Made by a program: the position numbers and the translations under genes. From Nemertoderma westbladi (taxonomy: Eukaryota; Animalia; Xenacoelomorpha): a stretch of 44,326 bases of DNA. The DNA lies in the NCBI GenBank assembly GCA_032718475.1, contig JAUCBJ010002513.1, positions 1 through 44,326 on the forward strand, given 5' to 3'. The notes under the pieces are model-generated. The model did no database searches and was not told where the DNA came from. It saw only the letters and a program-made list of their open reading frames with translations. Below, in pieces: positions 8,459 through 44,326 of this stretch. Positions within the stretch are counted from its first letter, which is position 1. Every line of letters starts with the position of its first letter.

Positions 8459-8957
8459 TTCGTAAACCTAAAATTCCGTAGCACTGTAGCAGTATGCAGT
8501 ACCGGTACTGGCTGACAGGAGACTTGATTGGCTGACTGGTGTTAGAGCTAGGCAGCTAGGTAACATGTAGGTAACAGGCTGACAGCGTGAAGGGTGACGG
8601 CAAGACAGGCAGACAGGGGAAATAACACCTGAACATAGCCCAAGAAAGAACATCCGACCGAACCCAGTCAGTCTGTGACCACAACTGTCCCTGTCCACTG
8701 ACAAGTTCCTAAAAGGTGCCACCCTGCTCCATATCGCGGGAAATTCTAATGATTGAAAGACATGTAATTTGTACTAGAAAGGCGGCAAATATTTTGAAAA
8801 ATTGAAATACTTAAAATTAAATTTTATATTAAAAATATTTTGGCGGTAAATTCAAATCTGTTTTTAAGACTAAATGTAATTCATTGAATCAGAAAAAATT
8901 ATTTCTGATCGGTTTAATTCATTCACTCATCCGTTATTCTTGTTGTTTTATCTATTC

Positions 8958-9430
8958 TGGGGCTTCGAGCAGCACGTAAACAACTAAGCTGACTGGTTAA
9001 TTAGGGACTTCGAGCAGCACGGGAAAAACTAAGCTAACTGGTTAACAAGTCTTAGGACTTCAAGCAGCACGTGAACAACTAAGTTGACTGGTTTACTAGT
9101 CTGGGATTTTGAGCAGCTCATGAACAACTAAGCAGACTGGTTAACTAGTCTGGGACTTCGAGCAGCACGTGAACAACTAAACTGGCTGGTTTCCTAGTCT
9201 GGGACTTCGAGCAGCACGTGAACAACTAAGCTGACTGGTTAATTAGTCTGGGACTTCGAGCAGCACGTGAAAAACTGAGCTGAGTGGTTAACTAGTCTGG
9301 GACTTTGAGCAGCTCATGAACAACTAAGCTGATTGGTTAACTAGTCTGGGACTTCGAGCAGCACGTGAACAACTAAGCTGACTGGTTAACTAGTCTTGGA
9401 CTTCGAGCAGTACTTGAACAACTAAACTAA
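8958..9430 (+). repeat. 49-bp tandem array (CTGGGACTTCGAGCAGCACGTGAACAACTAAGCTGACTGGTTAACTAGT), about 10 copies
   Basis: Period 49 (e.g. 9151 vs 9200). Two to three inverted copies lie at 9780-9890. Confidence 0.95.
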
Positions 9431-10023
9431 ACTGTTATTACATTAGAAGTACTTTAAGTACCACTGCAGTAAGAAGTTTACAGTATGAAGTCTACTGCTC
9501 TAGCTCCTTGACCTTTTAGTACGTACCCACGTACATTATGCAGCACACTGTGTACAGTTTGTGATGGAAATATTATAATTCAGTAATTTGAATCAACCGC
9601 CAAAAATATATCAACTCACTGCGCCTTTCTATCATCTATCCACTTGAAATCTAGTATTAACATACTAGGTATAAGTGTATAATTGTTATGTTATAATGTT
9701 CTATACTTTACTGGGATAGAAGTTAAGCCAAATCACCCGACCCCCCCCCCCCCCCCCCCCCTTCTCAATTTTCAATTTTGCTCGAAGTCCAAGACTACTT
9801 AACTCAGCTTAGTTGTCCACGTGCTGCTCTAAGTCCCAGACTAGTTAACGTGCTGGTTTAGTTGTTCACGTGCTGCTTGAAGCCCCAGAATAGATAAAAC
9901 AACAACAATAACGGATGAGTGAATGAATTAAACCGATAAGAAATAATTTATTCTGATTCAATGAATTACATTAGTCTTACTCTATTCATGTCTGTCATGT
10001 ATTCAATCTTAAAACAAATTTGA

Positions 10024-10077
10024 ATTTACCGCCAAAATATAGGTGGCAGATCTGCCACCTATATTTTGGCGGTAAAT
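10024..10077. repeat. Perfect 54-bp palindrome
   Basis: ATTTACCGCCAAAATATAGGTGGCAGA|TCTGCCACCTATATTTTGGCGGTAAAT. Confidence 0.97.
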
Positions 10078-10547
10078 GATCTGCCACCCTTTCTGTTTCT
10101 GCCTTTGGCCTTTGCATTATAAATTACATGCCTTTCAATCATTTGAATTTGCCGCGCTATGGAGCAGGGTGGCACCTTTTAGCTGTTTAGGGACTTGTTA
10201 GCCACAGGACCAGCTCGTACTGTCATAGCTTATGGTGTTACTGCTGTTGCTGTACTGTGTTATGGCTCAGTCAGTGAGTAAACAGGTAGGTAAATGCAGC
10301 TACAATGAATCACTCCACAGTCCACACCCAGTTAAATAAATGTGTTCAGATTAGAGGTGCAACCAAGGACTACTGAGGCAAGGACTCTGGCGGTATTAGT
10401 ACGTTTGAACGACACTAGCCAAACAATCCTAAAATCAGATAGAAACTGATAAAAATTGTTACCGGTACCGGAATAACAGTATTGTTATGCCTACTGTTAC
10501 TTACTGGGCCTACTGTTAGTATACTCATACTGTGCTCGTGTACTGTC

Positions 10548-10763
10548 ATGGCACAATTAAATTTCATTGAGATTGAGAAACTTATCGAGACTGAGGAGCG
10601 CGCTATTAGGTTTGCACAAAGCGTGGAGCTTCTCCCCCGAACTCTACAACCAAATGGGCAACCAACCCTACGTCTTTGTCATTTTCTGCCATTTCCGGGT
10701 TGTACTGCGCAATCTAAAATTACTTTGGTGAAGGACAGGTTGATTGTCTTGGGTGCAACATAA
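10548..10763 (+). pseudogene. Possible N-terminal fragment of a Merlin/ISXO2(IS1595)-like transposase, or first exon of an unknown gene
   Basis: MAQLNFIEIEKLIETEERAIRFAQSVELLP..C resembles, from recall only, the N-terminal helix/Zn-ribbon region of eukaryotic ISXO2-like transposases. No catalytic domain follows. Confidence 0.3.
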
Positions 10764-11482
10764 AGATTTCTGTATTTAAAATGCCATTAATCTGTTAATA
10801 TCAAAAATAGGCCTAAGTCTGTAAGTCCAGAAGTCAGCAATGTACTGCGACTGACTGATTGGCTGAAGTACTGAGGTAAGACAGTAAGAAAAAATTATGT
10901 TATGTAAATACTGAAATACAGAACAGAAATGAGCTGAAATTTTGCCGGATATGTCGCCACCCAGCAAGTTATAGCCAGTTGCCATGGTAACGCCTAACTA
11001 CCAGACTGCCAGACGGAAATTTCTAGTTGCTTTGTCGCCTTTGTAATTTTCTGTACCAGACAGAAATTTGTACGGTACGTACAGCGGCTTTGTCTCCTTT
11101 ATAATTTTCTGCTCCAGACGGAAATTTGTAGCGCGGCTTTTGTTACCATAAACCTGATAAACAATAATTTTACATACATTTTAGATACACGTATACATAC
11201 TGGTACATAAAAAGTCATTAAACGAACAACAAAAATCATTATTCACAATTCGTAACAAAGGGCGGACAAAAAAAAGTCAAACGAACGGACATAAAAAATC
11301 AATGCCATATTGCAACTATTCAAAAACGAATGCTAGATTTAATATTATTTTATAAAAGCGCTCACACCCTTTGTAATAAAAGTGTACTTTCAGCAGTAGG
11401 CCTATTCGACAACTACTCCACTCAACTAATATTAACAATTAGCTATCCGTACCAACAAATCACTATAAAGTTGAAGAATAAC

Positions 11483-12257
11483 TCTGCCCTCCTAAGGCAA
11501 AACCATGTATCTCAAAAAATCGAGTTTTGAGAAAAATCAAACAAAAGTTAACAGATCTGCACGAAAACATGTGAATATCTGTGTGAACATTTCAACACTA
11601 AAGTTTAGTCAAATAGTATATTCAAATAGGCCTACCTAGAAAGTCTTAGAGCTCCAAACTTAAGCTAGTTAATTAAAAAAAAATTTATTTTGATTTTCGA
11701 GTTACATGGATTTACCTTTCAAATTCTAACCAGTGCCCTATATTTACTATATAACATAAAGCAATTTAGATAAATTTCCACAGGAGTTCCTAAGCCAAAA
11801 CAATGTAACTCGCCTGAGATACATGGTTTATGCTTAGTTACATGAAGTGTCATTATCACATGAGAGTTAGATGGTTCTGCCTTAGTAGTCGTTATCAAAT
11901 TCATATAAAGCAGTTACATTCTACCCCCTTTTTAACCCCTTTAGAGTTTAGGTGCACTCTATTAAATTCTACCACCATACCACCAGATAAAGCTCCCCGT
12001 AAAGGCCATGATACACCACAGGAGCGGCAGCGGCGTGCGGCCGCGGCAGGCGGCCGATGTGAGCGGCGACTTTTAGTTTGATAGACCTTAGGAGCCGCGA
12101 GCGGCAGCGGCCATTTCTGGTGTATTTTTTAAAAAGTGGCCGCTCGCTGCGGCCGCTCGCCGCCCTGTGGTGTATCATGGCCTTAAGCTTTCAAATGATA
12201 CCAACATCTCATTTTCGTCAAAATTCAAGTTACATGGGTTTGCCTTAGGATGGCAGA
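11483..12257. mobile_element. Non-autonomous TIR element (MITE) hosting a nested MITE
   Basis: TIRs TCTGCCCTCCTAAGGCAAAACCATGTA / TACATGGGTTTGCCTTAGGATGGCAGA, with internal GTTACATG subrepeats. Confidence 0.75.
12003..12183. mobile_element. PIF/Harbinger (Tourist-like) MITE, 181 bp
   Basis: TIR AGGCCATGATACACCACAGG / CCTGTGGTGTATCATGGCCT. TAA TSD at 12000-12002 and 12184-12186. GC-rich GCGGC internal repeats. Confidence 0.9.
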
Positions 12258-13875
12258 ACTGCCGTGTGGTGTAACTGGTGCATTATCCTTGGAGACACTT
12301 TTTTTTAAATGTTTTTTAGCTAAAGATTGAAAGCAAAACCGAAAATTCTGGCTGACCCACTAAGTCATGGCCTACACCGTCTAAGTCGGCGTCGGCGGTA
12401 AGACTAATGTTAAGACTGGCCCATAGCCAGCCTATTATAGATGTTAGTTCATTGCATAAGATGTCTGCAGCAACTGTAAATACATAATTATGAATGTTTT
12501 TATATTGCCATTCACGCCGGCTCTATATTTTATTGTTTGTGATTAAATATGTAATTGACGACACTTAAGTGAGTTGCTGTAATAATTTTGGAATTAATTT
12601 TTGTTGAATATTGGTAGTAAACTATCAATATTTTTTTTTGAATATTGGTATAGTTTACCCGTAGCGCCTGTACTGGACGTGCACAGTACAACTGAAATGT
12701 AATACCGGATTATATTCTTAATTAATTTTTGGATATTAATATATTTTCCTTTGTCGGATATTTTAATGTTATTCTCTTAATATTTATTATCGATCATACG
12801 TATTAATATAACTAATAAAAACTTAATTAGCCTAGTTATGTGTAAAAAATGTTATACTGTACTTAGTATTAATATTAAATATTTATAAAGTAAAAACTGT
12901 ATAAAATATGTGATAATTTATGTCCCGTAAATTACGACAAATCATCACCCCGTCACGAAGAGAAGAGTGCCACACAGCATGCCGTCGAGGAAGACATACG
13001 CCACATCACTCCAGCCAGAAACTTAATATTTACCACCCTATCCTATCAATTCTTACCAATAGAGCTTCATTTTATGCGTGAGATTACTTTATGTGGCAGG
13101 TAAGAATCCTGTAAGTGGCCGTCATATTATTACAGTATTATTGGAGTTAACAGGTTAACTCCTTTATGGGTCTGATTCAAAATACAACTTAAATACAGTA
13201 TTTGTTCTATTTCTACTGTACATGATTCTCTTATCTATATTTTCACCCACTGAGTAAGTTTGTTGTGTAAGAAACCATTCGGATCAGTGAAGTGCTACGT
13301 TACACACGTGTGTCAAATATGTCAAATAATACATATGTATTGATTTTAGCATGCCCAAGAAAGGTCCGTCCAATACGCAGTGGGAAGAAAGGACTGGCGG
13401 CAGGATCGTTTACCTTCGGGAGTGGAGAGAGACCTCGTTCTGGTTCAAAGTGGCACATTCGTGTTGCTGCAATAGAGGGATGTCGTGGGGGTCGAGGAAA
13501 GGACGTGTTTGGGCGTGAAACAACTTGCACTTGTGGATACCACGTAAATATTTAATTATTATTAGTTCTCATTAGTCATTACTATAGAAACATAACCACT
13601 TTAATTACCGGTTAACCGCTTTATGATATGGAGGTTGTCTTGCGGTTTATAAAAAATAATACATAGTAATACATATTTTTACATATGTGGCGGTTGCAGT
13701 AGAAAAGACACATGGAAAAAAGTGGCGTTTTGAGAAAAACGTATTTAAAGTTTTGTGAAAGGTAGAAAACATTTAGATCAGCAAAGTAACGCCAAAATAT
13801 AATATTTCTAGATGAAAATTTTACCATCTTTCCAGCTGCCAGATTTCTAGAAACGTAACTTCGTCTTAAAATGTT

Positions 13876-25547: not shown

Positions 25548-26660
25548 TCATGTTAAATTTTCAAATATACATTTTTTTAATTTAGATCGAAATATTGACT
25601 TGGATGGGATAGCCCGGATAGAATTTGGCAATGAGTTCCATTGAGCAGGGCCTTTATATTTAATTGATCGATGGGCAACCAAAAGCCTTACTCTCGGGAC
25701 AAAAAAAGTATTATGTATGATTACGAGCTGACCTGGTTCCATATGAGTGAATATTCGATACTGGCTGAAATAATGCTCTAGTGTTTGGGGACTTTTTTTT
25801 AATGGAAACAGTATACATGAAAGTTAACAACTGAAAGTAATATAATTTGTCAATTGGAAGGATTGTAAGCTTTTTGTACAACGGCGCTGCTGCAGAGATT
25901 CTAGAGTGACTAAAAGTTATAGCCCGCAACAATTTATTCACTTTTATTTTAAGCGGTCTAATAATAGATGGGCAAGCATTTCCCCAGATTAAAAGCCCGT
26001 ACGAGATGTATGGGTTGGAGATCGATTGTATCGATTTGGAGATTTTGGCCAAAACATATTCGACATGAACTTTCCATGATAGTTTACTGTCTATATATAA
26101 ATTCCTAAATATTTGCAATAAATATAATTTTTCATTTCTCACAAACTGTTGGCTGTTTTCAAGATAGCTACTAAACAATTTAAGAGGTAGACACCGAACT
26201 CCATAATTACTCAGTTTCATAAGTAGGATCGTATGGTCAAGCGCATCAAACGCCTTTTTGAGGTCGATAAATATTACTGTTGAAAATAACTTATTGTCTA
26301 GTGCTTCTCTTATTTTTTCAAGTACAGTTAATAAAGCCTCTGAGGTTTGCATATTTTTTCGGAAGCCGAATTGATTTGGTGTAAGGAGTGCATATTTATT
26401 AATGTAAGTGGTCAGCTGAGTTTTTAAAATCTGCTCGAATATTTTGCTAAAAACAGGTAGCACGGATATAGGTCGATAGTTAGTGGGATCATGGGGATTA
26501 CCACTTTTAAATACTGGAGTTATTACCCTTGCTACCTTTAACAAATCGGAAAAATTCCCCATGCTAATACATTGATTAATTAATGAACACAAATGCTCAG
26601 CTAGAATATCAGCTGCGAGTTAAACCAGCTTAATTGAGAAAGCGTCATTCGTGGAACATT
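25548..26660 (-). mobile_element. Decayed CR1/L2-group LINE RT with an internal deletion
   Basis: PVFKSG..NYRPISVLP, QFGFR, FIDLKKAFD, IDSKLSWK.H and WNSLP are present. The QG and YADD motifs are missing. Confidence 0.85.
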
Positions 26661-27309
26661 TTTGATGCAAAATAACACATCTATTATTAAATTTTCTAAT
26701 GTTTAACTATTTGGTGCAAAATAACACATAATATATTATTAAATTTTCTAATGTTTAACTATTTGGTGCAAAATAACACATATATTATTAAGTTTCTCAA
26801 GCTACTAACCCGCAATTAACTACCTACTGTATAAATTATGTTTACTTGGATATTTTTTAGCATTTACTGTAAAATTGCAACATACCGTACACACGGTACA
26901 CGGATGCAACCTGCTGAGGCTTAGGCTGTAGCCCCACCACTTAACTGCACTACCGGTACTCACAACGTTTCACTGTTTTAATTAGGCCCTAATTAATATT
27001 TCTATGTAAATTTCCCATTAATTAACTGTAAATGCTGCTTGGTAGTTAGGCCAACCCTAAACTTTTAAATTGTGAACTATTTTATAAATTTAATTATATT
27101 TTAACACTATTTTAATTGATTATACCGCTGAAGACGCCCGCGAGGGTGAAATGGCCAGGCCATACGGTAAATAATTAACTTCCATTTTTTATATCCACGT
27201 GGTGAAAGACCCTTCCTTGCCTTTATTAATCCTGTAATTATGAATACGCCACGAAAAACGTCGTTCCGGTTAATCCAAAACCTAAATCCTGGAAAGCCCC
27301 CATTCAAAC

Positions 27310-27750
27310 CTGCCCATGCCTATCTGATTGCTGCAATAATTTCACCACAAATCCCATATTCTGAAAGTATGCTGAACGAACATACGTGACTGATTCAAAG
27401 GCCTTGAAGAAATATAACAGCCAGATGCCTGTCTTTCTTTTTTGATAACTCTTCAATTATCCTTCTAAGTGCCAAAATGGGCTCCATGGTCCCACGACCT
27501 TTACGGAACCCATTCTGATTTCCACGTAGAAGTCTCTCAATGGGATCCCTGATGCGATTTAATAGAATTCTATTGTATAGCTTTGCAGCAATCGAGATCA
27601 ATGAGATTCCCCGAAAAGAACCATAGAGCGTTAGGTTGCCCTTCTTGGAAACTGGGACCAACTTATTTGTTTTCATTTCTTGTGGGACTCTTGTTGTACG
27701 GTACATGTCTACTATGATGGGATAGATGATGTCTGATGTCGTAACGATGA
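27310..27750 (-). mobile_element. RTE-type LINE RT fragment (RT1-3)
   Basis: KKGNL...FRGISLISIAAKLYNRILLNRI..LRGNQNGFRKGRGT..ILALRRIIE. Confidence 0.85.
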
Positions 27751-27769
27751 TGTCAGATGATAATCTGAT

Positions 27770-28978
27770 TAGTATAAATGGCTGTTTTAGTCCTCTACAT
27801 AGCCAAAAAATGAAAAAAAACAAGTAACCAGCACTTAATTCACTTATACGATGCTAGAAATTCACATTTTTAGGTTTTCTGGGGCGCTGATTCTAATGGA
27901 ATACATTTCTAATTTGCCAGATCATTGTTAATCTTATTTTTAGCGTAATATGGCAAATTTTTGGCGCTAGCATCAAATTTCGTACTCATCACCAAAAAGT
28001 ACAAGTTTGAGATACCAGTGCGGTTTTTATTGATTCCATCGGATTCAGGACCCTCATAAACCCGTATAACACAAGAAACAAGATGATACTATATATTAAT
28101 CAATTTGCTTATTTTTAAAAATTTGGTGCTGGTTCAACGATTTTCACCAACCGGCGAAAAATACAAGTTTGAAAACTCTTATGTAATTTTTACTTATTCC
28201 ATTAAATTCAGAACCCTCACAAACCCGTATAACACAAGAAACAAGGTGACACATGAATTTGAATTTGGTGCTAGCACCAAATTTTGCTACCACTTCAGAA
28301 AAATACGAGTTTGAGATGTGTAGTTGAGTAATTATTTATTCCGTTGAATTCAGAACCGCCATAAACCTCTAAAACGTGAGAAATAAGTTGTCACAAGCAA
28401 TTGAACTATTGAATGGATTTTCATAATTTCGTGCTGGCACCAAATTTTGCACTCACATCGCCAAAAATTACAAGTGTGACACGCCTAGTACAACTCGTAA
28501 ATATTCCATCAAAACCAGAACCCCAACAAAAAACAGGTTCAAACAATCAATTTACAAACTTGACATATTTCAAAATTTGGTGCTGGCACCAAAATTGGCA
28601 CCCGCCGAAAAAACAAGTTTGAAAATTTATATGAATTCCATCGAATTGTAAACACCAAAAAAACCGGTGTAAATTAAAAATAGAGATGTTACAAATCATA
28701 TTTCATGAAATGTAATTTTCAAAAAACGCCTCAAAAAAGTGCCAAAAGTAAGGTTAAAAAATGGTGCTATAACTCGAGAACTTCACAATATTTTTGTATA
28801 CCGTTTTCACTATTAGGAAGACAATAGATTTTAAGGAAAAGACATAAAATTACAGATTCCCAACTGCGTTTGTTTAAGAGTTATAACAAAATAACCCTGG
28901 GGGTGGAGGGGGGGGGGGGGGGGGGGGGGGGGGGTGGGGGGTCATATTGACCACCCCCCCAGGGTTTAATATGGTTAA
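27770..28978. mobile_element. Non-autonomous DNA element with about 150-bp internal repeats, interrupting the RTE
   Basis: Recurring TTTGGTGCT(A/G)GCACCAAA palindromes and TTCAGAACCC..AAACCCGTATAAC blocks. Right end GGTTAA abuts RTE coding sequence. Left end unclear. Confidence 0.6.
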
Positions 28979-29620
28979 AGAACTCAGAGGGGGCAGCATC
29001 TACTCCACTGGCACGATTGGCCTCGATTGGCCACAGCAGCCTTCACTTTAGCCAATGGGAATATCTGGGAGTACAGACTCAGACACTTTTACTTCCATAA
29101 AGTTATCGGACAAAACTCTGTCATTATTGAGGAGCTTTTCAAAGTGGGCCTTCCTACCATTATTGAGGCGATCGGCTGGTGATTCTGCCTTAACCTTGGT
29201 GGTTGATTGGATTTTTCGCCCAGTCAACAAGTTGACCGATTTCCATGCCTGGGGGATGATTGCCTGCTGCCGTCAGCATCATTGATGGCATCAACCTGTT
29301 GGTTTATAATCTCCTGTAGATTAACAGAGTACTGCCTGGTCAGTACTGCATGTTCCCAGGTCACATAAGTCGTCCACATGCTCAAGCATACCATCCTTTG
29401 AGCTTATGATCATACGATCAGACATTTCCTGAGGACTTTCAAAGTTAACTCTCAAAATTTCGGTCTTCTTGGAGTCAACAAAAAGACCAACACTAGAAGC
29501 AGTCTGTTCTAATGAGATGAGGAGCCGTTGGGCTCCCTCTAGTGATTCTGAGATTATTCCTAAGTCATCAGCAATGTCTAGGTACTTGGCAGATATTTCC
29601 TCGACTTCTGGAGCCATAAG
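28979..29620 (-). mobile_element. RTE-type LINE fragments (pre-RT/RT0 at 28979-29320; RT5-6 at 29321-29617)
   Basis: AWKSVNLLTGRK, HFEKLLN and RASGVD in the first part; LDIADDL..LEGAQRLL..VGL..KKTE in the second. Confidence 0.75.
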
Positions 29621-29722
29621 GTGGAGTTACCATCACCCCATCATCATTGATGATCTAAGGACATGCGTAGAAAATAGTCAACCACAATTATGAATAAGTG
29701 TAATCTAGTGTAATTTATGTAG

Positions 29723-30475
29723 TTTAACCCCTTAGAGCCTATGACGTCCACTCCACGTCACCATGGACAGCACTAAGACGTGCAGTGGACTTCATGCTGG
29801 AATACATATTTTATTGGAAGGGTCTTGGTCTAGGTATACTGGTGGACAGTATTAATGACATTTAGTGCTCTTCATGGCAAAAAATCCATTATGTACTGTA
29901 GATATAGGCTGTATTGTATGTAGACTGTATTATTAGTGTTAGGTATATGGCGTAATGCTAACCACAGTACAGTAGTACAGACTGACAGAAAGACCGTCAG
30001 ACAGACAGACTAGATTTATGTAAACGTGTAAACTGACATCAGAAATGAAATCAGCAACCCTTTAAACCCCCATGGCGAGAATGTTAGTTAGTTTGTATAC
30101 TTTTTTAAGTTTTGACAGACTGACTGACAGAAAGACCGACAGACAGTCAGACCGACAGACCAACAGACTAGATTTATGTAAAAGTGAAATCTGACGTTAA
30201 AAATTAAATCAGCACCCCTTAAAACCCCCATTTTGTGAAAGTCTGTCAATATATAACAAGAAAGCATAAAACCATGATAAGATTTTTGCTATGGGGGTTT
30301 TCCTGGTCGCTGAATTCATTTCTGAGGTCAGTTTTCACTTTTAATGAAATCTAGTGTCTCTGTATGTCTGTCTGTCGGTCTTTCTGACTATCCGTCTATA
30401 TCTGTCTGTCAAATATATGAAAAAGGCACACCATTTAGCTAAAAGTTTAGCTATTGGGGTTTTTAGGGGCTTAGG
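29723..30475. mobile_element. TTAA-CCCCTT-started (piggyBac-like) non-autonomous element with internal inverted (GACA)n-containing repeats
   Basis: TTAACCCCTT at 29723. 29980-30230 is duplicated and inverted at 30290-30470. Right terminus uncertain. Confidence 0.45.
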
Positions 30476-31757
30476 GGATAGTTATAAAACCCGAAAATAA
30501 CGAAAAAGACGAAATGTTCATCGAAAATATCGAATTTATCAAACAATTTGCAAATTCTCGCTTTACAGTACGATAGGTATTATTAGAAGGCACACTTTAC
30601 ATTTTTAAATTCATAAAATCCGATAATTTCGCCCCATTTTCGACCTTAAAAGTAATTTAATACCAAATACTGTCTGCTGGTTGGTTGTTAGGTGTTAGCT
30701 GTTAACCAATGGCGGCTTGGATGAAATCAGTGTACTGCAGTATTGGTCTGGTGCATTACAGATGTGGCACTACAGGTGTACTGTTGTACAGGCCTTGGTC
30801 AGCACGGTACAACAGCCCTATCAGCCTACAGACAGGAGCTGTTGCGCTGACAGACAGAGAGATAACATCCCATGGGGTAGGGCGTACAGTACAGTAGGGG
30901 GTACAGGATAAGGATTTATTCTGGACTATCAGATACCGGTAGAAGATGATTATTAAAAGTAGGAACGATGGCGAACGATGACTTTTATGATAATCTCCTT
31001 ATTTTTAACATTACATATGAATCATATCAGTGCCGTATTAATTCCCAGGTAACACAGGACGTTCATGGAAGAAATTGAACGTTATCAAATGGTTCAATTT
31101 CAGCCATTAATTGAACGTCTTTCAAAAAAAACGTTCAACATACGTACAAATATGATTACGTTTCCAGTCTTGTACCAATTTGAAACGTTAAAATAAGGCG
31201 ATAAAGAGACGTTGCTAAACATAACGAAAAATGAACTTTAACATTTATAAAATAAAACGATTAATGAACGTTCAATTAACGTTCAGTTTTTCGTTCATTA
31301 TGTGTACCTAAATATGTATGTAGATTGTCTGGCAATGGCGTGTTCGGACTTGCTGGTGACTCACAATATTCCCATATAAGTGTTTTTGCCTTAAGAAGAC
31401 CAATAACATTGTTCCTTTAAGAGGGGGGGGGGTACCCCCCCCCCCCCCCCCTTGTTATTATGTAAACGTTTAAAATGTTTTTATACCTACAGTATTACAC
31501 GTTCGTGGGGCCTTCGCGCAGCACGAGGCCCAGTTATGAGATACAAATTAAAACACAAAATCAGGTTATGAGAGATTAACCAACACCACCAATTAATCAA
31601 AGAAAGGGGGACAGTACGTGTTCACCCCTTTTAATCTGCACCCCCCCCCCCCCCCTCCCTTCCCACCCACCAATACATAACCGCGACATCTACCACCCAA
31701 GGAAGGGTAGCACGAACTTATTTCCAAACGCACGTTCAATATGCAAAGCCAGGTGGT

Positions 31758-32216
31758 TTATAGGAATATAATCAATGCAGTACTCGTCTTCATTATAAGC
31801 CTCTTTGCGTTCGACCTGTTTTGTATTAAAATATATTTATTAAACGCAGGCTGACGCTCTTTATAATAATAATACCTAGGGATGCCAGCTTCCAGACTTT
31901 CAATCTTTACTGCCGCGCAAACCCCGCAGAGGAAGTTTTGGTTTGAGAGATCAAGCCCATCGGCAATTGGTGTTTCAATTTCGGTCCAGGAACTCTGACA
32001 ATGGGAGCATTCAATCTTAGCTGTGGTCCATTCCCGTGGTTTCGGCTTCCTTTTCTTCGTCCCAATGACAGATTCTTCTGAAGACGTTCGATTCACTTTC
32101 AGTTTATTGTTGGCGTTTGTGTTTTGAAATTGTATTCGAGTGGACAGTCGCGCCGGTTTCGAGGTAACCATACCGACCTGTGATAAGCGTTGGTTTTGTT
32201 GAGTGCCGGTATTCAT
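31758..32216 (-). other. Short ORF with two CxxC pairs, possibly a LINE ORF1 PHD-like remnant
   Basis: CSHC...FLCGVC preceded by a basic stretch; no other support. Confidence 0.25.
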
Positions 32217-33060
32217 CTTCTCTCACCTCTTCAATGTCAGATGTTGCAAATACTGATAACACGAATAACGGTATATATTTCAATACTTGTCAATAGTAAT
32301 ATATATAATTTAGATAACTATTTTATATCTGTACTGTTGAGCAAACTCTACATAAATTCCAACCTGTGTATCGCTGGTAGGGCTGTTGCTGTGCAAGTGC
32401 TAGTTGCCACTGGTCAGCCGGTACCGGTAGTAGGGTGGTACCATGGCCTACTACACACAGGCCATGACAAGGACTTTGCTGTGAAATTAGCGTAGGCTGA
32501 CTGGTGACTGATGAATTATCAAATATTATATTTTCCATGAATGCAGGGTCCATATTTAAAAGAAGATGACTAGATTTTCGTAAAGAATTTAATTGAAACA
32601 GTATTTAATAATAAATAAATTAATTATCGCTCGAGTTCCTGCAGCTTTTATTCGTGGCAGGAATGTTTGAACGCTAATAAGTCGGTCAATCAAGGATGAA
32701 ATGGAACCAAACTTGGTACACATGTAGTCTATAAAAAATTTAGAAATTCTACACACAGACAGACTTCTACAGTTCCCCGGTCTGCCGCTAGGGGGCGAAT
32801 TAACAGAAACGTAAAAATAGCTGTAATTATAGAACCAACGATCAGATTCATCTGAAATTTAGTAGTAGTTACCTAAGAGCATTGCTTAATTAGAAATTCT
32901 ACAGAGACTTTTACAGTTCCTGTCTGCCGCTAGTGGGGAACTGTTAGAGCTCCAGTTCAACGTGCTTAGCACGGTTTAATAAACAATCAATTAATTATTT
33001 TATTCAATACAGTAATTATAACAGTAAAATGCAATGTATTCTATTTTTTAGTGAAATCAA

Positions 33061-33327
33061 GAGATAGGAGGGGGGTGGGACTGGACGCAAATCCCATCTT
33101 GGCGAATTAATATCCCGCCTCAATATTAATTTCTAAATTTTGGGAAAGGAGCAGGTTACAGTGGCACGTTATTTTAACCAAAACAATAAAGTAAACACAA
33201 TAGAACAGGTTACAGTTTTATTTTTGAGAGTAATCAGCTGTTGTTATTTGCGTCCAATTTCCCCTGGAGATGAGGGATGAATTTTTATTGCGTCCAGTTC
33301 CCCCCCCCCCCCCCCCCCCCCCTATCT
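33061..33327. mobile_element. MITE with 8-9-bp TSD (Mutator-like)
   Basis: TIR GAGATAGG(G)n ACTGGACGCAA / TTGCGTCCAGTT(C)n CCTATCT. Direct repeat TGAAATCAA at 33052-33060 and 33328-33336. Confidence 0.8.
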
Positions 33328-33479
33328 TGAAATCAAATACCAAAAATATATTTATTATATGAACAATCTATTTGGAAATTGTAAGTTCGGCCTATCTCTT
33401 TACCATAAGCTCAGTATCTTTATCTGGTGTGTTTTTATTATTTTACCAATTATTTAATATGTTTGATAGAATTGAACAA

Positions 33480-34085
33480 CACCGCCCAACACAACCAACT
33501 CTCTATCCGCCTCGAGCATCGAGAATACGAGAAACTCGATCGAAATACCTGCTTATCCCAGTAGTATCCGTCCGTAGTCTAGTCACCGGACCGCTGCGGT
33601 TTACTCCCGTAGAACAGTAGAATTCCCGCAGCTTCCGACCCAATTCGACAACGAATTCGCTTCACACTTTCGCGTCACAGAGAACGTAATCCAGTGCGAT
33701 AACGTCTGCCCAACGTTCAACCATTTCCCCCAGGCGATCCCAGGATCCGGGCCGCCGCTAAACCCAGATCGCAATCCTCGTCGATTCGTCCAGTCGTCGA
33801 CGTAAGTCAGTAAGTGGGACTCTTCCCACCGCACTCCAAGGTGGGTGACCGGAGTGAGGCATGATGAACTTGGCAGTGGCCCGCATTACGATCTGACCGA
33901 CCGCCGTATTCCCAGTGTCTGAGTGTAGTAAATACCCAAATAGAATCGTACTGACAAACAAGCAATTCCGTAGTATTCCCCCGTTAATCACCTCTTGAAG
34001 CAACTCGGCTGCTCGGGTCCAGATACATCGGACTGTCGGGAGCGTTTCAGACAGTAATGGAGCGGCATTTGCGAATATTTCCAAT
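33480..34085 (-). pseudogene. ALDH3: Aldehyde dehydrogenase family 3 (ALDH3/fatty ALDH) pseudogene fragment
   Basis: Piecing frames together after removing small insertions gives LP.YLDP, VINGG, YTGNTAVGQIVMRA.AK, VTLECGGKSPTYVD, DCDLGLAAARIAWGKWLNVGQT, DYVLC and REFYGSKPQRSGDYGRI, which are ALDH3 core motifs. Many frameshifts. Confidence 0.85.
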
Positions 34086-34746
34086 GGTTTTATAATAAAT
34101 AAGGGGATTCAACAGTTCAATGCTAAAACAAATGGATTATTCCTAACCCCACCCCAATACAGCAATATACCTAACAGTATATAGCTTAGGTACCACAGTC
34201 TGACTAGCTTTAAATATTAGAGTATGAAAATTATTATAGGACCCTCATGGAAACGAGGTATATACCTCATGAGGCTATCCTTACACCAGAACCTTTTATT
34301 TAAGTAAATAAACATTTTATAAGTTGACTATCTACATAAATCAGTATTGGTGCTCCTAAATATCTAGTGTTATTACTTGTACTGTAGGCCTAATATCGTA
34401 ACGTAATCTTTATAAATGTATTATTGTGAATTTTAAAAGGTTTAATTATGTGTAAAAAACAATCAATCAATCAAACCATAATCAGCACAGTCAGCCTACG
34501 CATGGGTGGTACCTACGGTGCGCACTACAACGGCAGTACAGCAATACGGTGTACCGTGCCAATGACTGAATGATTAGCGGTAACTACTGAACTATCTAAA
34601 CTATTATATTATTATTACCGGTACTAGGCTAATTAGGCCTAAACTATAATCACCGCAAGGGTTTCCGGGGCCATGTTTAGATTACATGATATGGCATGTC
34701 TGCAGTGTATGGTACCGGCTGACCTGTATTGCAGTATTGACTGATT

Positions 34747-35140
34747 GCAGAATTCTCGATTCAGGAATTGAGTCACAGCCTGACAGTACCGGTACAAATG
34801 GTACATGCAGATTGGCAGACAGCCCCTATGTTTTGCAAAATTTGTCAGAAAACCAGCTGATTTATCCTACAGTAATAATAATTTAACGCATGTTAATTTT
34901 GGATAAATAAATATATTATAACTACAATAACAGTTACACTGATGCTGCACGAAGGCCCCACGCAAATTCTACTTGGAAAATTTTCAAACTTTTGCCAAAC
35001 AACATGTGTACCAAGTTTGGATAGATTTCATCAAGGATTGGCCGAGTTATTAACGTTTAAAATAAAATACTGAAAAAAAACGCGACAGAACGACAGAACG
35101 ACACGTTCGTGGGGCCTTCGCGCAGCACGAGGCCCAGTTA
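34747..35140 (+). repeat. Direct-repeat copy 1, containing a Helentron-like element
   Basis: 34747-35096 is near-identical to 42401-42729. Inverted GCTGCACGAAGGCCCCACG (34945) / CGTGGGGCCTTCGCGCAGC (35107), GACAGAAC microrepeat and hairpin GGGCCTTCG..CGAGGCCC. 35101-35200 also matches 31497-31580. Confidence 0.85.
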
Positions 35141-35339
35141 TGAGATACAAGTTAAAATTGTGCGACTGTATCACAAAATCAGGTTATGAGAGATTAACCC
35201 ACAACTTGGTACATAATAAGTACAAAAGGTACACAACTTGGTACAATGGGTACAAAAGTTACACAACTTGGTACATTGTAGGTACAAAACGGCGCCCGGG
35301 ATACAATGGTGTACCCGGAAAGAAGATGCGCAGATAAAC

Positions 35340-36163
35340 GGATAAATTCGGCGATAATAAACATAATTTCAGCATTCTTTAAAGATACCGACAGACCACA
35401 GACTGCGGGAATACAGGAATAACGGGAGTTTGCGTAAATTAGCCGGAATCTCGAACTGTCGAAAGCTTTCCCGAGATCACTTCCATTTTTACTGTACCGG
35501 TACCCAATTGTGCCCACATCCAGATCGATCCGATAACCGATCACGTCGCCTAGTCCATATGGTTGTCCATAGTCGTCAAAATGCCGCCCGAAACACTTCT
35601 TACCGTTTCCTCCGAAGCCAAAACTATTTTTATCAGTCCCGATATCGAGTGTCGCGCTTTCCGGTGCTCCAACCAACCCGGCATGCAGGCATGGGCCCTC
35701 GCACCTCGTCCTTTACCGTCGCCTCGTAATAGCTGAATAGTAACGAAACGACCGGATCCGACTATTCCTTTAGTCGTCCGGGTACCGTGCCAACTCCTCT
35801 GGCCACGCGCATGACACAGCAACCGTCCGGGGTGATGGCCAACTGGTCACCTCTATCGCTCTATCGAATGAGTTCAACTGAAATTTCGTAGGCCTAGTTC
35901 TTCCCCCCGATTTCCCATCGAGTTTTCCATCTCGGAGTTTGTACCGTAGAGTTTCATGGACCAGCTGTAGTATCGGGATACAGAATGCCCCGGTCTTCCC
36001 GCTTCCGCCGCCATCAGCACAGTCTCCACCGCCCAGGATCAGAGCTGCAGAGGGACAGCCTCACCCTGCAAGTTGGTCGGTAGACTCCATTCCAGGACAT
36101 CCAACGCGCGTCCGATTTCCTTCTGAACACCACAGTCAGCTACAGAGCTACGAATGATCCCAT
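35340..36163 (-). pseudogene. DDX1: DDX1 (DEAD-box helicase with SPRY insert) N-terminal pseudogene fragment, intronless
   Basis: GVQKEIGRALDVLEWSLPTNLQGEAVPL, GSGKTGAFCIPILQLVHETL, WHGTRTTKG, CRVGWST..TLDIGTDKNSFGFGGNGKK and SKNGSDLGKAFEIP..FPAV.LKNAE give the Q-motif/Walker A/SPRY order diagnostic of DDX1. Many frameshifts. Confidence 0.92.
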
Positions 36164-36368
36164 ACTGTGTACTGCAGTACTGCCATACCTGCATACTGCA
36201 GTACTGCCATGCCATATACAATAGCCTAATGCAATAGGCCAATACAGCAATAGTCATACAACCAGACTGCGTTCAGTGTTAGGCAAAACAGAAGTAGGCC
36301 TAGCCTAAGCAGCTAGGCTTGTACAGTCTGCAGTCTGACAGTTGTAGCTACAATAATTGCCGAAATGC

Positions 36369-39300
36369 ATCGGATCGGATCGGATCGGATCGGATCGGAT
36401 CGGATCGGATCGGATCGGATCGGATCGGATCGGATCGGATCGGATCGGATCGGATCGGATCGGATCGGATCGGATCGGATCGGATCGGATCGGATCGGAT
36501 CGGATCGGATCGGATCGGATCGGATCGGATCGGATCGGATCGGATCGGATCGGATCGGATCGGATCGGATCGGATCGGATCGGATCGGATCGGATCGGAT
36601 CGGATCGGATCGGATCGGATCGGATCGGATCGGATCGGATCGGATCGGATCGGATCGGATCGGATCGGATCGGATCGGATCGGATCGGATCGGATCGGAT
36701 CGGATCGGATCGGATCGGATCGGATCGGATCGGATCGGATCGGATCGGATCGGATCGGATCGGATCGGATCGGATCGGATCGGATCGGATCGGATCGGAT
36801 CGGATCGGATCGGATCGGATCGGATCGGATCGGATCGGATCGGATCGGATCGGATCGGATCGGATCGGATCGGATCGGATCGGATCGGATCGGATCGGAT
36901 CGGATCGGATCGGATCGGATCGGATCGGATCGGATCGGATCGGATCGGATCGGATCGGATCGGATCGGATCGGATCGGATCGGATCGGATCGGATCGGAT
37001 CGGATCGGATCGGATCGGATCGGATCGGATCGGATCGGATCGGATCGGATCGGATCGGATCGGATCGGATCGGATCGGATCGGATCGGATCGGATCGGAT
37101 CGGATCGGATCGGATCGGATCGGATCGGATCGGATCGGATCGGATCGGATCGGATCGGATCGGATCGGATCGGATCGGATCGGATCGGATCGGATCGGAT
37201 CGGATCGGATCGGATCGGATCGGATCGGATCGGATCGGATCGGATCGGATCGGATCGGATCGGATCGGATCGGATCGGATCGGATCGGATCGGATCGGAT
37301 CGGATCGGATCGGATCGGATCGGATCGGATCGGATCGGATCGGATCGGATCGGATCGGATCGGATCGGATCGGATCGGATCGGATCGGATCGGATCGGAT
37401 CGGATCGGATCGGATCGGATCGGATCGGATCGGATCGGATCGGATCGGATCGGATCGGATCGGATCGGATCGGATCGGATCGGATCGGATCGGATCGGAT
37501 CGGATCGGATCGGATCGGATCGGATCGGATCGGATCGGATCGGATCGGATCGGATCGGATCGGATCGGATCGGATCGGATCGGATCGGATCGGATCGGAT
37601 CGGATCGGATCGGATCGGATCGGATCGGATCGGATCGGATCGGATCGGATCGGATCGGATCGGATCGGATCGGATCGGATCGGATCGGATCGGATCGGAT
37701 CGGATCGGATCGGATCGGATCGGATCGGATCGGATCGGATCGGATCGGATCGGATCGGATCGGATCGGATCGGATCGGATCGGATCGGATCGGATCGGAT
37801 CGGATCGGATCGGATCGGATCGGATCGGATCGGATCGGATCGGATCGGATCGGATCGGATCGGATCGGATCGGATCGGATCGGATCGGATCGGATCGGAT
37901 CGGATCGGATCGGATCGGATCGGATCGGATCGGATCGGATCGGATCGGATCGGATCGGATCGGATCGGATCGGATCGGATCGGATCGGATCGGATCGGAT
38001 CGGATCGGATCGGATCGGATCGGATCGGATCGGATCGGATCGGATCGGATCGGATCGGATCGGATCGGATCGGATCGGATCGGATCGGATCGGATCGGAT
38101 CGGATCGGATCGGATCGGATCGGATCGGATCGGATCGGATCGGATCGGATCGGATCGGATCGGATCGGATCGGATCGGATCGGATCGGATCGGATCGGAT
38201 CGGATCGGATCGGATCGGATCGGATCGGATCGGATCGGATCGGATCGGATCGGATCGGATCGGATCGGATCGGATCGGATCGGATCGGATCGGATCGGAT
38301 CGGATCGGATCGGATCGGATCGGATCGGATCGGATCGGATCGGATCGGATCGGATCGGATCGGATCGGATCGGATCGGATCGGATCGGATCGGATCGGAT
38401 CGGATCGGATCGGATCGGATCGGATCGGATCGGATCGGATCGGATCGGATCGGATCGGATCGGATCGGATCGGATCGGATCGGATCGGATCGGATCGGAT
38501 CGGATCGGATCGGATCGGATCGGATCGGATCGGATCGGATCGGATCGGATCGGATCGGATCGGATCGGATCGGATCGGATCGGATCGGATCGGATCGGAT
38601 CGGATCGGATCGGATCGGATCGGATCGGATCGGATCGGATCGGATCGGATCGGATCGGATCGGATCGGATCGGATCGGATCGGATCGGATCGGATCGGAT
38701 CGGATCGGATCGGATCGGATCGGATCGGATCGGATCGGATCGGATCGGATCGGATCGGATCGGATCGGATCGGATCGGATCGGATCGGATCGGATCGGAT
38801 CGGATCGGATCGGATCGGATCGGATCGGATCGGATCGGATCGGATCGGATCGGATCGGATCGGATCGGATCGGATCGGATCGGATCGGATCGGATCGGAT
38901 CGGATCGGATCGGATCGGATCGGATCGGATCGGATCGGATCGGATCGGATCGGATCGGATCGGATCGGATCGGATCGGATCGGATCGGATCGGATCGGAT
39001 CGGATCGGATCGGATCGGATCGGATCGGATCGGATCGGATCGGATCGGATCGGATCGGATCGGATCGGATCGGATCGGATCGGATCGGATCGGATCGGAT
39101 CGGATCGGATCGGATCGGATCGGATCGGATCGGATCGGATCGGATCGGATCGGATCGGATCGGATCGGATCGGATCGGATCGGATCGGATCGGATCGGAT
39201 CGGATCGGATCGGATCGGATCGGATCGGATCGGATCGGATCGGATCGGATCGGATCGGATCGGATCGGATCGGATCGGATCGGATCGGATCGGATCGGAT

Positions 39301-42300
39301 CGGATCGGATCGGATCGGATCGGATCGGATCGGATCGGATCGGATCGGATCGGATCGGATCGGATCGGATCGGATCGGATCGGATCGGATCGGATCGGAT
39401 CGGATCGGATCGGATCGGATCGGATCGGATCGGATCGGATCGGATCGGATCGGATCGGATCGGATCGGATCGGATCGGATCGGATCGGATCGGATCGGAT
39501 CGGATCGGATCGGATCGGATCGGATCGGATCGGATCGGATCGGATCGGATCGGATCGGATCGGATCGGATCGGATCGGATCGGATCGGATCGGATCGGAT
39601 CGGATCGGATCGGATCGGATCGGATCGGATCGGATCGGATCGGATCGGATCGGATCGGATCGGATCGGATCGGATCGGATCGGATCGGATCGGATCGGAT
39701 CGGATCGGATCGGATCGGATCGGATCGGATCGGATCGGATCGGATCGGATCGGATCGGATCGGATCGGATCGGATCGGATCGGATCGGATCGGATCGGAT
39801 CGGATCGGATCGGATCGGATCGGATCGGATCGGATCGGATCGGATCGGATCGGATCGGATCGGATCGGATCGGATCGGATCGGATCGGATCGGATCGGAT
39901 CGGATCGGATCGGATCGGATCGGATCGGATCGGATCGGATCGGATCGGATCGGATCGGATCGGATCGGATCGGATCGGATCGGATCGGATCGGATCGGAT
40001 CGGATCGGATCGGATCGGATCGGATCGGATCGGATCGGATCGGATCGGATCGGATCGGATCGGATCGGATCGGATCGGATCGGATCGGATCGGATCGGAT
40101 CGGATCGGATCGGATCGGATCGGATCGGATCGGATCGGATCGGATCGGATCGGATCGGATCGGATCGGATCGGATCGGATCGGATCGGATCGGATCGGAT
40201 CGGATCGGATCGGATCGGATCGGATCGGATCGGATCGGATCGGATCGGATCGGATCGGATCGGATCGGATCGGATCGGATCGGATCGGATCGGATCGGAT
40301 CGGATCGGATCGGATCGGATCGGATCGGATCGGATCGGATCGGATCGGATCGGATCGGATCGGATCGGATCGGATCGGATCGGATCGGATCGGATCGGAT
40401 CGGATCGGATCGGATCGGATCGGATCGGATCGGATCGGATCGGATCGGATCGGATCGGATCGGATCGGATCGGATCGGATCGGATCGGATCGGATCGGAT
40501 CGGATCGGATCGGATCGGATCGGATCGGATCGGATCGGATCGGATCGGATCGGATCGGATCGGATCGGATCGGATCGGATCGGATCGGATCGGATCGGAT
40601 CGGATCGGATCGGATCGGATCGGATCGGATCGGATCGGATCGGATCGGATCGGATCGGATCGGATCGGATCGGATCGGATCGGATCGGATCGGATCGGAT
40701 CGGATCGGATCGGATCGGATCGGATCGGATCGGATCGGATCGGATCGGATCGGATCGGATCGGATCGGATCGGATCGGATCGGATCGGATCGGATCGGAT
40801 CGGATCGGATCGGATCGGATCGGATCGGATCGGATCGGATCGGATCGGATCGGATCGGATCGGATCGGATCGGATCGGATCGGATCGGATCGGATCGGAT
40901 CGGATCGGATCGGATCGGATCGGATCGGATCGGATCGGATCGGATCGGATCGGATCGGATCGGATCGGATCGGATCGGATCGGATCGGATCGGATCGGAT
41001 CGGATCGGATCGGATCGGATCGGATCGGATCGGATCGGATCGGATCGGATCGGATCGGATCGGATCGGATCGGATCGGATCGGATCGGATCGGATCGGAT
41101 CGGATCGGATCGGATCGGATCGGATCGGATCGGATCGGATCGGATCGGATCGGATCGGATCGGATCGGATCGGATCGGATCGGATCGGATCGGATCGGAT
41201 CGGATCGGATCGGATCGGATCGGATCGGATCGGATCGGATCGGATCGGATCGGATCGGATCGGATCGGATCGGATCGGATCGGATCGGATCGGATCGGAT
41301 CGGATCGGATCGGATCGGATCGGATCGGATCGGATCGGATCGGATCGGATCGGATCGGATCGGATCGGATCGGATCGGATCGGATCGGATCGGATCGGAT
41401 CGGATCGGATCGGATCGGATCGGATCGGATCGGATCGGATCGGATCGGATCGGATCGGATCGGATCGGATCGGATCGGATCGGATCGGATCGGATCGGAT
41501 CGGATCGGATCGGATCGGATCGGATCGGATCGGATCGGATCGGATCGGATCGGATCGGATCGGATCGGATCGGATCGGATCGGATCGGATCGGATCGGAT
41601 CGGATCGGATCGGATCGGATCGGATCGGATCGGATCGGATCGGATCGGATCGGATCGGATCGGATCGGATCGGATCGGATCGGATCGGATCGGATCGGAT
41701 CGGATCGGATCGGATCGGATCGGATCGGATCGGATCGGATCGGATCGGATCGGATCGGATCGGATCGGATCGGATCGGATCGGATCGGATCGGATCGGAT
41801 CGGATCGGATCGGATCGGATCGGATCGGATCGGATCGGATCGGATCGGATCGGATCGGATCGGATCGGATCGGATCGGATCGGATCGGATCGGATCGGAT
41901 CGGATCGGATCGGATCGGATCGGATCGGATCGGATCGGATCGGATCGGATCGGATCGGATCGGATCGGATCGGATCGGATCGGATCGGATCGGATCGGAT
42001 CGGATCGGATCGGATCGGATCGGATCGGATCGGATCGGATCGGATCGGATCGGATCGGATCGGATCGGATCGGATCGGATCGGATCGGATCGGATCGGAT
42101 CGGATCGGATCGGATCGGATCGGATCGGATCGGATCGGATCGGATCGGATCGGATCGGATCGGATCGGATCGGATCGGATCGGATCGGATCGGATCGGAT
42201 CGGATCGGATCGGATCGGATCGGATCGGATCGGATCGGATCGGATCGGATCGGATCGGATCGGATCGGATCGGATCGGATCGGATCGGATCGGATCGGAT

Positions 42301-42374
42301 CGGATCGGATCGGATCGGATCGGATCGGATCGGATCGGATCGGATCGGATCGGATCGGATCGGATCGGATCGGA
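36369..42374. repeat. Perfect pentanucleotide array (CGGAT)n, about 1200 copies, 6.0 kb
   Basis: No visible interruption across 36371-42370. Confidence 0.99.
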
Positions 42375-42400
42375 CGGCGTCTGACTATAAATGCACCCTA

Positions 42401-42840
42401 GCAGGATTCTCGATTCAGGGATTGAGTACAGCCTGACAGTACCGGTACACATGGTACATGCAGAATTGCAAAATTTGTCAGAAAACCAGCTGATTTATCC
42501 TACAGTAATAATAATTTAACGCATTTTAAATTTGGATAAATAAATTTATTATAACTGCAATAACAGTTACACTGATGCTGCACGAAGGCCCCACGCAAAT
42601 TCTACTTGGAAAATTTTCAAACTTTTGCCAAACAACATGTGTACCAAGTTTGGATAGATTTCATCAAGGATTGGCCGAGTTATTAACGTTTAAAATAAAA
42701 TACTGAAAAAAAACGCGACAGAACGACAGGTTGATTAATGGTACCACTACGCTAAGGCTCACTCACTTCGTGGCTCGCCCCATAGGTTGATTAATGGTAC
42801 CACTACGCTAAGGCTCTCTCACTTCGTGGCTCGCCCCACA
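42401..42840 (+). repeat. Direct-repeat copy 2 with a different, tandemly duplicated 3' end
   Basis: Matches 34747-35096, then continues with two copies of about 56 bp: GGTTGATTAATGGTACCACTACGCTAAGGCTC.CTCACTTCGTGGCTCGCCC. Confidence 0.85.
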
Positions 42841-43665
42841 ATTACTGATTTACAGTATTACTGTAGTGCTTGGGGGTGTTGTGTGTGAGATTGAGAGTAC
42901 AGTATTTCTATACTGATTAATTACTAAAACAGTAAAATAAACAATAAACATACAGAGTAATGTAAATACAGAATATATTTAGTTACAGTGCCGGTAGGTT
43001 ATTATCACAATGGTTTTTTTTTTATATTTACAGTTATTATAAATTTTAGTTAAATAAATAAATATATACAAATTTTATTTGTTCAGTATAGATGGCGGCT
43101 AAATTGTGCGAAATTGTAGGCCCTTCAGAATTTAGTCGGATTTCAGATTTGCACCTACCGGTACGCACTTTGCGCTTTATTCATAACAACATAAAGATAC
43201 TTATAACGATCAGTATCAGTAAAAAAAATACCCTGACTACAGTGAACAGCTAACATCTACACTACAGTACGTCTTAATCGTATAATAAAATAAAAACTTC
43301 TGGGGTCTTATTAATTAATTTTTGGTCGACCAAAAATTAATTTTTGGTCGACCATAAATTATGACGTCATGGAGAACTTCTGAAAAAAATAATAAAAAAA
43401 TTAATTAATTGGCAGAGATCAGCCACCGTAAGGTTGTGTTGGTCAATTACAGTAGGAATTATATGACTGTTCGTTGTCCTAGGTGATATTGTTAATTGTT
43501 AATAGTAATAATGTTGGTGGTACTTAGTACTGTCTGTTTGTCTTTCAGTCTTTGTATTGATATTGATCAATCGTTTGCTTTTGACAGTTTGTTGGGTGTG
43601 TGAAAAATAATTGCTAAGTTGACTGCAGTGGGGGGCATGGAGTATGCAGTGGGGGGCATGGAGTA

Positions 43666-44050
43666 TGGTGTCGTCGGTCGTCGCGTTACGGCTACTGTCG
43701 CATTACAGCTATTTTTTTTGGGAGATTAGCCGTAACGCGACTTTCAAAGTCGCGGTACAGTTTATAATAAGTTTATTAATAAGTTTACGGAGGAGGTAGA
43801 GGAGGTGTGGGGGGGGGGGGGGGGGGGGGTGGTTATACCATCTTTCATACTGTATGTTTGATAATGATTCCCTATGTAAAACCAAGACAATAGATTAGCC
43901 GTAACGCGACAATTAGCCGTAACGCGACAATTAGCCGTAACGCGACTTTTTGAGTAGCCATACCGCGACTTTTAAAGTCGCGTTACGGCTACTCTGAAAA
44001 TTAGCCGCAACGGGACTTCCCGTAACGCGACATTAGCCGTACAGCCACTG
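43666..44050. mobile_element. MITE built from direct and inverted TAGCCGTAACGCGAC repeats
   Basis: About 10 copies in both orientations. Flanked by the direct repeat TGGAGTAT (43659-43666, 44049-44056), or by GAGTA if the right end is CCACTG. Confidence 0.7.
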
Positions 44051-44326
44051 GAGTATTGCCGGCATGTGGCAAGACACTGAATTAAGACACTATTATTGCA
44101 GCATAGCAGCAGTGTAACTGTAGGCCTATAACTGTATAAATATTTAATACAATACAGCGCCTAAATATTAAATTAAATACTGCAATATTATAAATAAGCC
44201 TTACTACAGTAGGTCTACTGTTAATATGTATGCCTAATTTGCCACATGTATTTGGGTATTGTATTTGTGTTTGTATTTTTGTATTTATTTATTTTATGTA
44301 TTTGGCTATGTATCATGCAATATGAA

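Follow-up and report, generated by a model that had tools for sequence, protein, structure and literature searches.

Five-base duplications around a CAG or CTG core in Nemertoderma westbladi DNA: candidate footprints of a cut-and-paste transposon

Pseudogene fragments of ALDH3 and DDX1 in contig JAUCBJ010002513.1 of Nemertoderma westbladi are interrupted by a short motif in which a 5-mer is followed by CAG or CTG and then by the same 5-mer (N5-CWG-N5). How did these motifs arise and, if a transposon left them behind, what kind of transposon was it? An initial annotation had read them as scars of an unassigned element with CAG...CTG ends and a 5-bp target duplication, and all 14 motifs that it had listed proved to be exact matches, covering 12 of the 22 CWG sites in that stretch. 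Here, we analysed the whole contig (44,326 nt, referred to as the window). Our analysis confirms the motifs as a real observation, and we consider it quite probable that they are excision footprints of a cut-and-paste DNA transposon with predicted 5'-CAG...CTG-3' ends and a 5-bp target duplication.

Counts, anatomy and distribution of the scars

In the stretch 33480-36340, 22 N5-CWG-N5 motifs (14 CAG, 8 CTG) were found, whereas 200 dinucleotide shuffles predict 0.11 and trinucleotide shuffles 0.105. The remaining window, counted with satellites and minisatellites masked, contained another 17 (0.95 expected). The initial annotation had set enrichment of CAG and CTG over other spacers as a check, and counting within 33480-36340 bore it out: CAG occurred 14 times and CTG eight times, followed by a next-ranking spacer with three occurrences, and the control spacers CCG/CGG and GAC/GTC were found once each. 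All other trinucleotide spacers between 5-mers together gave 34 matches in this stretch (3.1 expected, each at most three), many of which arise when the same scars, or tandem repeats, are read out of register. With a CWG spacer, duplications of five bases stood out (22 versus 0.1 expected) from those of three (2 versus 0.9), four (2 versus 0.3), and six to eight bases (none). Outside this stretch, shorter duplications around CWG showed a roughly two- to three-fold excess (three bases, 23 versus 11.5; four bases, 9 versus 3.4), which speaks against the footprint model. The two-base spacers also reported in the initial annotation were recovered in 33480-36340 with a clear polarity, as CA/TG occurred six times, with two overlapping (0.35 expected), and AG/CT was absent (0.33 expected). 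This polarity was weaker in a second cluster (CA/TG, 4 versus 0.95; AG/CT, 3 versus 0.59), likewise a point against the footprint model.

The core remained unchanged across targets. Window-wide, the 39 CWG sites comprise 36 distinct 5-mers, and CAG and CTG are about equally common (23:16, p 0.34 against 1:1). Because the spacer is the reverse complement of a target triplet in only five of the 39 sites, with no flank match in the other 34, it does not depend on the flank. The targets show a weak and symmetric bias towards T-A-N-T-A and away from G2/C4, as expected of a dimeric enzyme; at positions picked after inspection of the data, T1/A5 and A2/T4 were observed in 37 and 39 of 78 cases, respectively (background 0.29; p 6e-4 and 1e-4), and G2/C4 in four of 78 (background 0.21; p 1e-4). 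The GC content of the target 5-mers is 31%, compared to 41% in the unmasked window.

The scars are unevenly distributed (Table 1), with 22 CWG sites in 33480-36340, 13 in 8470-13200, three at the right end, and a single one in the 10.4 kb of 23111-33479. No CWG scar was counted in the Nup107 exons, the DUF6729 open reading frame (ORF), the LINE piece at 19880-22670, or the interval 17010-19880.

Table 1 Gene fragments, carrier repeat and scar positions in the window (a dot marks features listed without strand).
Feature	Position	Strand	Basis
Likely multi-copy repeat with ALDH3 and DDX1 fragments	33480..36210 (ends approximate)	.	Contig depth; loose ends 33482 and 36210 in X1
ALDH3 (fatty aldehyde dehydrogenase-like) pseudogene fragment	33500..34100	-	4QGK match
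DDX1 pseudogene fragment (N-terminal helicase part and SPRY domain)	35330..36170	-	4XW3, 8TBX, parent-like contig
CWG scars, ALDH3 piece (scars in 33512..34016)	33610, 33736, 33786, 33803, 33914, 34004	.	Motif scan
Further scars, ALDH3 piece	33512 (CA type); 33575 (bare 5-bp duplication)	.	Motif scan
CWG scars, non-coding DNA between fragments (34108..35101)	34108, 34155, 34561, 34582, 34727, 35089	.	Motif scan
Variant spacer TTG, between fragments	34807	.	Motif scan
CWG scars, DDX1 piece (35392..36150)	35409, 35451, 35681, 35728, 36040, 36138	.	Motif scan
Further scars, DDX1 piece	35392, 35697 (CA type); 35742 (bare 5-bp duplication); 35851 (8-bp tandem duplication)	.	
Stacked scars, right end (36163..36252)	36170, 36184, 36194, 36240 (CWG); 36163 (TG)	.	
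Second cluster, 13 CWG scars upstream of Nup107 (8479..13158)	8479, 8548, 8605, 9576, 10178, 10787, 10814	.	13 versus 0.18 expected
Second cluster, continued	10823, 10877, 10906, 11001, 13128, 13146	.	
CWG scars, right end of window (42925..44139)	42925, 43541, 44127	.	
Lone CWG scar	29977	.	

Scarred and unscarred copies of the carrier repeat

As had been claimed initially, the motifs are insertions: a shorter parent-like DDX1 contig, sister copies that lack some scars or carry others, and an empty arm of an inverted repeat all show this. The passenger DNA in which they lie is old and likely multi-copy. For the sister-copy comparison, 33380-36350 was aligned with contigs of the sequencing runs X1, X2, X4, and X6 (four of nine listed); the resulting tables list 12 of 116 indels and 23 of 672 loose ends, and X6, which we guess to be RNA, covers 0.22 of the words at a depth of about 3-17. 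The comparison with the parent gene called for by the initial annotation gave, for DDX1, a parent-like contig in X1 and X2 with 237 letters where the window has 273 (35663-35937). The 36 surplus bases equal the sum (8+7+8+5+8) of three scars (35681, 35697, 35728), the bare duplication at 35742, and the 8-bp tandem duplication at 35851, provided that two single-base indels cancel out, a +1 close to 35658 and a -1 close to 35820, the latter deduced from reading frames.

Sister copies differed at individual scars. Eight bases are missing at 34582 in X2, X4, and X6 contigs and at 34807 in X2 and X4 contigs, five bases are missing at 33575 in contigs of all four runs, and an X1 contig shows the empty form of the scar at 33736, entering at 33744 with sequence from upstream of the first 5-mer. 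Conversely, one X2 contig carries at 34559 a clean additional N5-CAG-N5 that the window lacks. Four of the listed sister-contig insertions were checked in context, and three of them count against the footprint reading: those at 34046 and 34617 are ambiguous, and that at 34373, first taken as N5-C-N5, turned out to be TA-GGCC-TA, a TA type. Within the window, a long inverted repeat provides an empty-site control, in which the right arm is scarred at 10178..10190 and the left arm has a single 5-mer without spacer at 8709-8713; here the arms were compared by eye, as the aligner set the gap poorly. The repeat units at 11001, 11054, and 11110, tried as a second such control, were uninformative. Scripted removal of the scars brought back the four peptides that the initial annotation had named as restored, but did not yield a single open frame, as other 1-, 5-, and 8-bp indels persist.

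Structural matches support both gene labels. The ALDH3 piece is ALDH3A2-like (4QGK residues 134-204, E 2.4e-4), with alignment gaps near the scars at 33914 and 34004; one of the two ALDH frames tried, 33604-33885, had no ALDH match, and a separate ALDH fragment search gave no matches. DDX1 was recovered with 4XW3 (E 4.6e-17) and 8TBX (E 4.5e-7), and weakly in one further search. The DDX1 fragment differs from the parent-like contig at 30 positions in 147 bp, and 11 of the 15 differences listed for 35551-35608 fall on third codon positions. Judging from this pattern, the captured DDX1 copy was under protein constraint through much of its divergence, so that it may stem from a paralogue or a different lineage instead of that parent-like gene.

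Contig depth suggests that 33480-36210 is likely a multi-copy repeat with tens of copies or more in X2 and X4, depth not being a strict copy number, and later copies would therefore inherit each scar. In X2, single contigs of the DDX1 piece reached depths of 855-1174, compared to 19.9 for the parent-like DDX1 contig, and in X4 308-388, compared to 11-17 for diverged copies. In X1, the excess was only about two-fold.

The density of about one scar per 100 bp that had been proposed applies locally, with 12 CWG and three CA/TG scars in the 1472 bp of both gene pieces, but not to the window as a whole, where 39 CWG sites in 33,383 unmasked bases correspond to one per 860 bp. In 33480-36340, seven one-mismatch scars, minus one expected, stand against 22 perfect ones, indicating about 5% difference between target copies; if scars arose at a steady rate, each would correspond to roughly 4-5 substitutions. 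This dating leaves out 23111-33479 because about eight of its 25 one-mismatch scars (4 expected) come from a GACA-rich element at 29965-30370. The description of the element as a dominant mutagen was thus overstated, as the scars are concentrated in a repeat that is likely multi-copy, and substitutions outnumber them roughly 4-5 times. Among the changes visible in this passenger DNA, scars are the chief cause of broken reading frames, but they do not dominate mutation in the genome.

A putative excision mechanism and its candidate enzymes

The initial annotation had suggested Tc1-like chemistry with a flexible 5-bp target. The form of the scars, a duplication plus two to three end bases, agrees with this, but no element was found in the window. 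As read from the scars, a dimeric DDE transposase would insert the element with a 5-bp stagger. On excision, the transferred strand would be cut right at the tip and its partner three bases inside the element, without a flank hairpin, leaving a 3'-CAG overhang on both flanks. These overhangs could pair with a single central A:A mismatch, the repair of which would give CAG or CTG about equally, and trimming ahead of joining would give CA, TG, or no spacer. Finally, the carrier repeat would pass each scar on to its copies, so that scars accumulate along its lineage.

The core of the Sleeping Beauty footprint reads CAG or CTG as well. According to passages of PMC7827188, excision by Sleeping Beauty and mariner involves a nick in the non-transferred strand, placed 3 nt into the element, and a cut of the other strand at the tip; the footprints equal the 3' overhangs, and in Sleeping Beauty both target copies and three terminal bases stay behind. 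In contrast to the TA of Sleeping Beauty, the duplication here is 5 bp long and flexible (36 5-mers). Tc1/mariner elements in general duplicate TA, which is missing from 15 of the 39 target 5-mers, while the retention of two to three end bases without a hairpin is matched in form by the CAG/CTG and CA/TG spacers and would imply similar chemistry. All scar features presented here would fit Sleeping Beauty-type excision if integration were staggered by 5 bp and not by 2 bp.

Within a transposon superfamily, the length of the duplication and the chemistry of excision are taken to go together, and the scar described here joins two traits that are otherwise separate: in the literature covered, 5-bp duplications are made by groups from superfamilies with a flank hairpin, and groups leaving three terminal bases use TA targets. 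If the motifs are footprints, this implies either hAT5-like enzymes that cut unlike other hATs, or a mariner-like enzyme with a wider stagger, or another or unclassified lineage; we would give the first and the last roughly the same weight and the mariner-like enzyme slightly less. The fullest version, an undescribed lineage in which double-strand hydrolysis of the mariner type (3-nt overhangs, no hairpin) goes with near-random 5-bp staggered integration and which has entered and left some passenger DNA so often that it became the chief source of local frameshifts, is tentative and, in our estimate, rather unlikely as a whole. Independent of the enzyme, the 13-base signature is easily counted in any assembly and can map past activity of an element with few filled copies. 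The scars also provide exact end and target rules for locating the transposase, which could serve as a near-random integration tool.

The nearest named candidate, which the initial annotation had left out and which we compared by description only, is hAT5. The scars may stem from an ordinary member of a named group, most likely hAT5, whose footprint has not yet been written up, a possible but doubtful reading that overlaps with our main explanation. According to passages of PMC12730594, hAT5 is defined by 5-bp duplications, as observed here, among animal hAT families near Blackjack. Passages of PMC1131882 state that hAT 5' ends invariably carry G at the third base and that hATs insert in AT-rich regions (GC-rich in its Table S2 legend); the predicted CAG ends, of which three scar-derived bases are known, would be compatible with the former, and the 31% GC of the target 5-mers agrees with the latter. 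However, hAT, Transib, and MULE enzymes are described in passages of PMC5499845 as hairpinning the flanking DNA, which would be expected to leave target-dependent inverted bases and no constant CWG, and only five of 39 spacers here are reverse complements of a target triplet. In addition, profile scans of frames in the window revealed no hAT transposase.

Other groups share single traits with the scars. Transib elements likewise duplicate 5 bp (passages of PMC1131882 and PMC12730594), but they have CAC ends and GC-rich targets, in contrast to CAG/CTG and 31% GC here, and excise through a flank hairpin. The CMCT clade shows CA..TG ends and 2-5 bp duplications (passages of PMC12730594). Neither CAC nor GTG, which the CAC...GTG ends of Transib would leave, is among the 12 commonest spacers here.

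Several further candidates were compared and set aside. Ginger2 and LTR elements end in TG...CA, which for LTR-type ends would yield TGN or NCA, whereas the three-base spacers here are CAG/CTG. Enzymes of the P element superfamily cut inside their own ends without a hairpin, so that the donor site keeps end sequence, but their overhangs are about 17 nt long and the scars here imply 3 nt. P element duplications are 7-8 bp in passages of PMC5199201, compared to 5 bp here. The TG...CA ends given for IS481EU in passages of PMC10045372 misfit in the same way as those of Ginger2. The RR..YY ends of KolobokP (passages of PMC9587614) do not fit either. For NuwaI (PHIS), passages of PMC4482050 describe CWG itself as the duplicated target, whereas empty sites here carry no CWG and the 5-mer is duplicated.

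Could one enzyme account for both the N5-type scars and the TA-CAG/CTG-TA words in the window? A TA-targeting Tc1/mariner that sometimes integrates with a 5-bp stagger would explain why both share the CWG core and why the T-A-N-T-A bias holds a TA in each half, and TACAGTA and TACTGTA are indeed frequent (17 and 16, compared to 1-5 for six control heptamers). We nevertheless regard this as improbable, since 15 of 39 target 5-mers lack TA, the two classes are spread differently (10 TA and one N5 scar in 23111-33479; three TA and 22 N5 scars in 33480-36340), and ITm elements generally make 2-bp TA duplications, as stated in passages of PMC10045372. Least probable of all, by our estimate, is an origin without any transposon, in which slippage or break repair creates the 5-base duplication and a template, nearby or fixed, supplies the few extra bases: bare 5-bp and other tandem duplications are in excess (13 overlapping matches versus 2.5 in 33480-36340, besides the 8-bp case at 35851) and window scans found no filled element, but this would leave unexplained why 36 different targets share one self-complementary CAG/CTG pair, why the length is so sharply five, why the target bias is symmetric, and why CA/TG occurs without AG/CT.

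Search for the source element and other features of the window

Scans for terminal inverted repeats (TIRs) with duplications and self-BLAST revealed no CAG...CTG element with a 5-bp duplication in the window, and the weak pairs were read as chance. Likewise, none of the 23 loose ends listed, of 672 in the run contigs, showed a CAG...CTG end with a 5-bp duplication. Of 96 further stop-free frames, 81 were scanned in Pfam (the other 15 lie inside Nup107 or had been scanned before) and gave no transposase, the matches being limited to Nup107, reverse transcriptase, and a single one to AgrB below threshold. A literature search outside Repbase and most subscription journals yielded no description of a footprint of this form.

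The only transposase-like ORF seen in the window is a DUF6729 ORF at 13870-17007 (+), an intact stop-free frame of 1045 aa (E 1.3e-56) with a DxxH motif and a C-terminal CCHC-like finger, whose atlas neighbours are chordate and basidiomycete clusters. It was set aside as the source of the scars because no TIR or 5-bp duplication was found around it and because it looks Dada-like; it resembles Dada transposases, which make 6-7 bp duplications and lack TIRs (PMC3706591). Three short motifs were absent from the text supplements of the same paper (9,417 characters), and its protein alignment possibly lies outside these. Rfam gave two matches, both far below the gathering score, and no small-RNA target for the DUF6729 ORF, and a metagenome collection held no match for a repeat motif or the DUF6729 protein.

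Besides TACAGTA and TACTGTA, the scar-like TA words TACCGGTA and TAGGCCTA occur 14 and nine times in the window, and the TA-GGCC-TA insertion at 34373 is polymorphic; several end-retaining transposons seem to have been active. A small inverted-repeat element at 33050-33336 is flanked by 9-bp direct repeats (TGAAATCAA), has a related copy near 6670-6880, and is presumably MULE-like by the length of these repeats. Another short inverted-repeat element, at 12002-12184, has GGCC ends and a TAA-type 3-bp duplication, by which we take it to be Harbinger-like. The stretch 8685-10210 is an element of about 1.5 kb with long inverted arms and 49-bp subterminal tandem repeats.

The Nup107 gene at 3989-8467 (-) consists of only about three large coding stretches without CWG scars, and its best named matches are vertebrate (36-46%). 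Two ORFs lie among repeats, one encoding a RING-H2 finger (18728-19384, +) and a short one that has a four-cysteine motif and whose Pfam matches all stay below threshold (31761-32222, -). The window begins with a 4-kb tandem repeat (1-3975), the unit of which measures about 18 bp, and contains a 6-kb (GGATC)n satellite at 36365-42375, just past which the segment 34747-35096 is repeated at 42401-42729.
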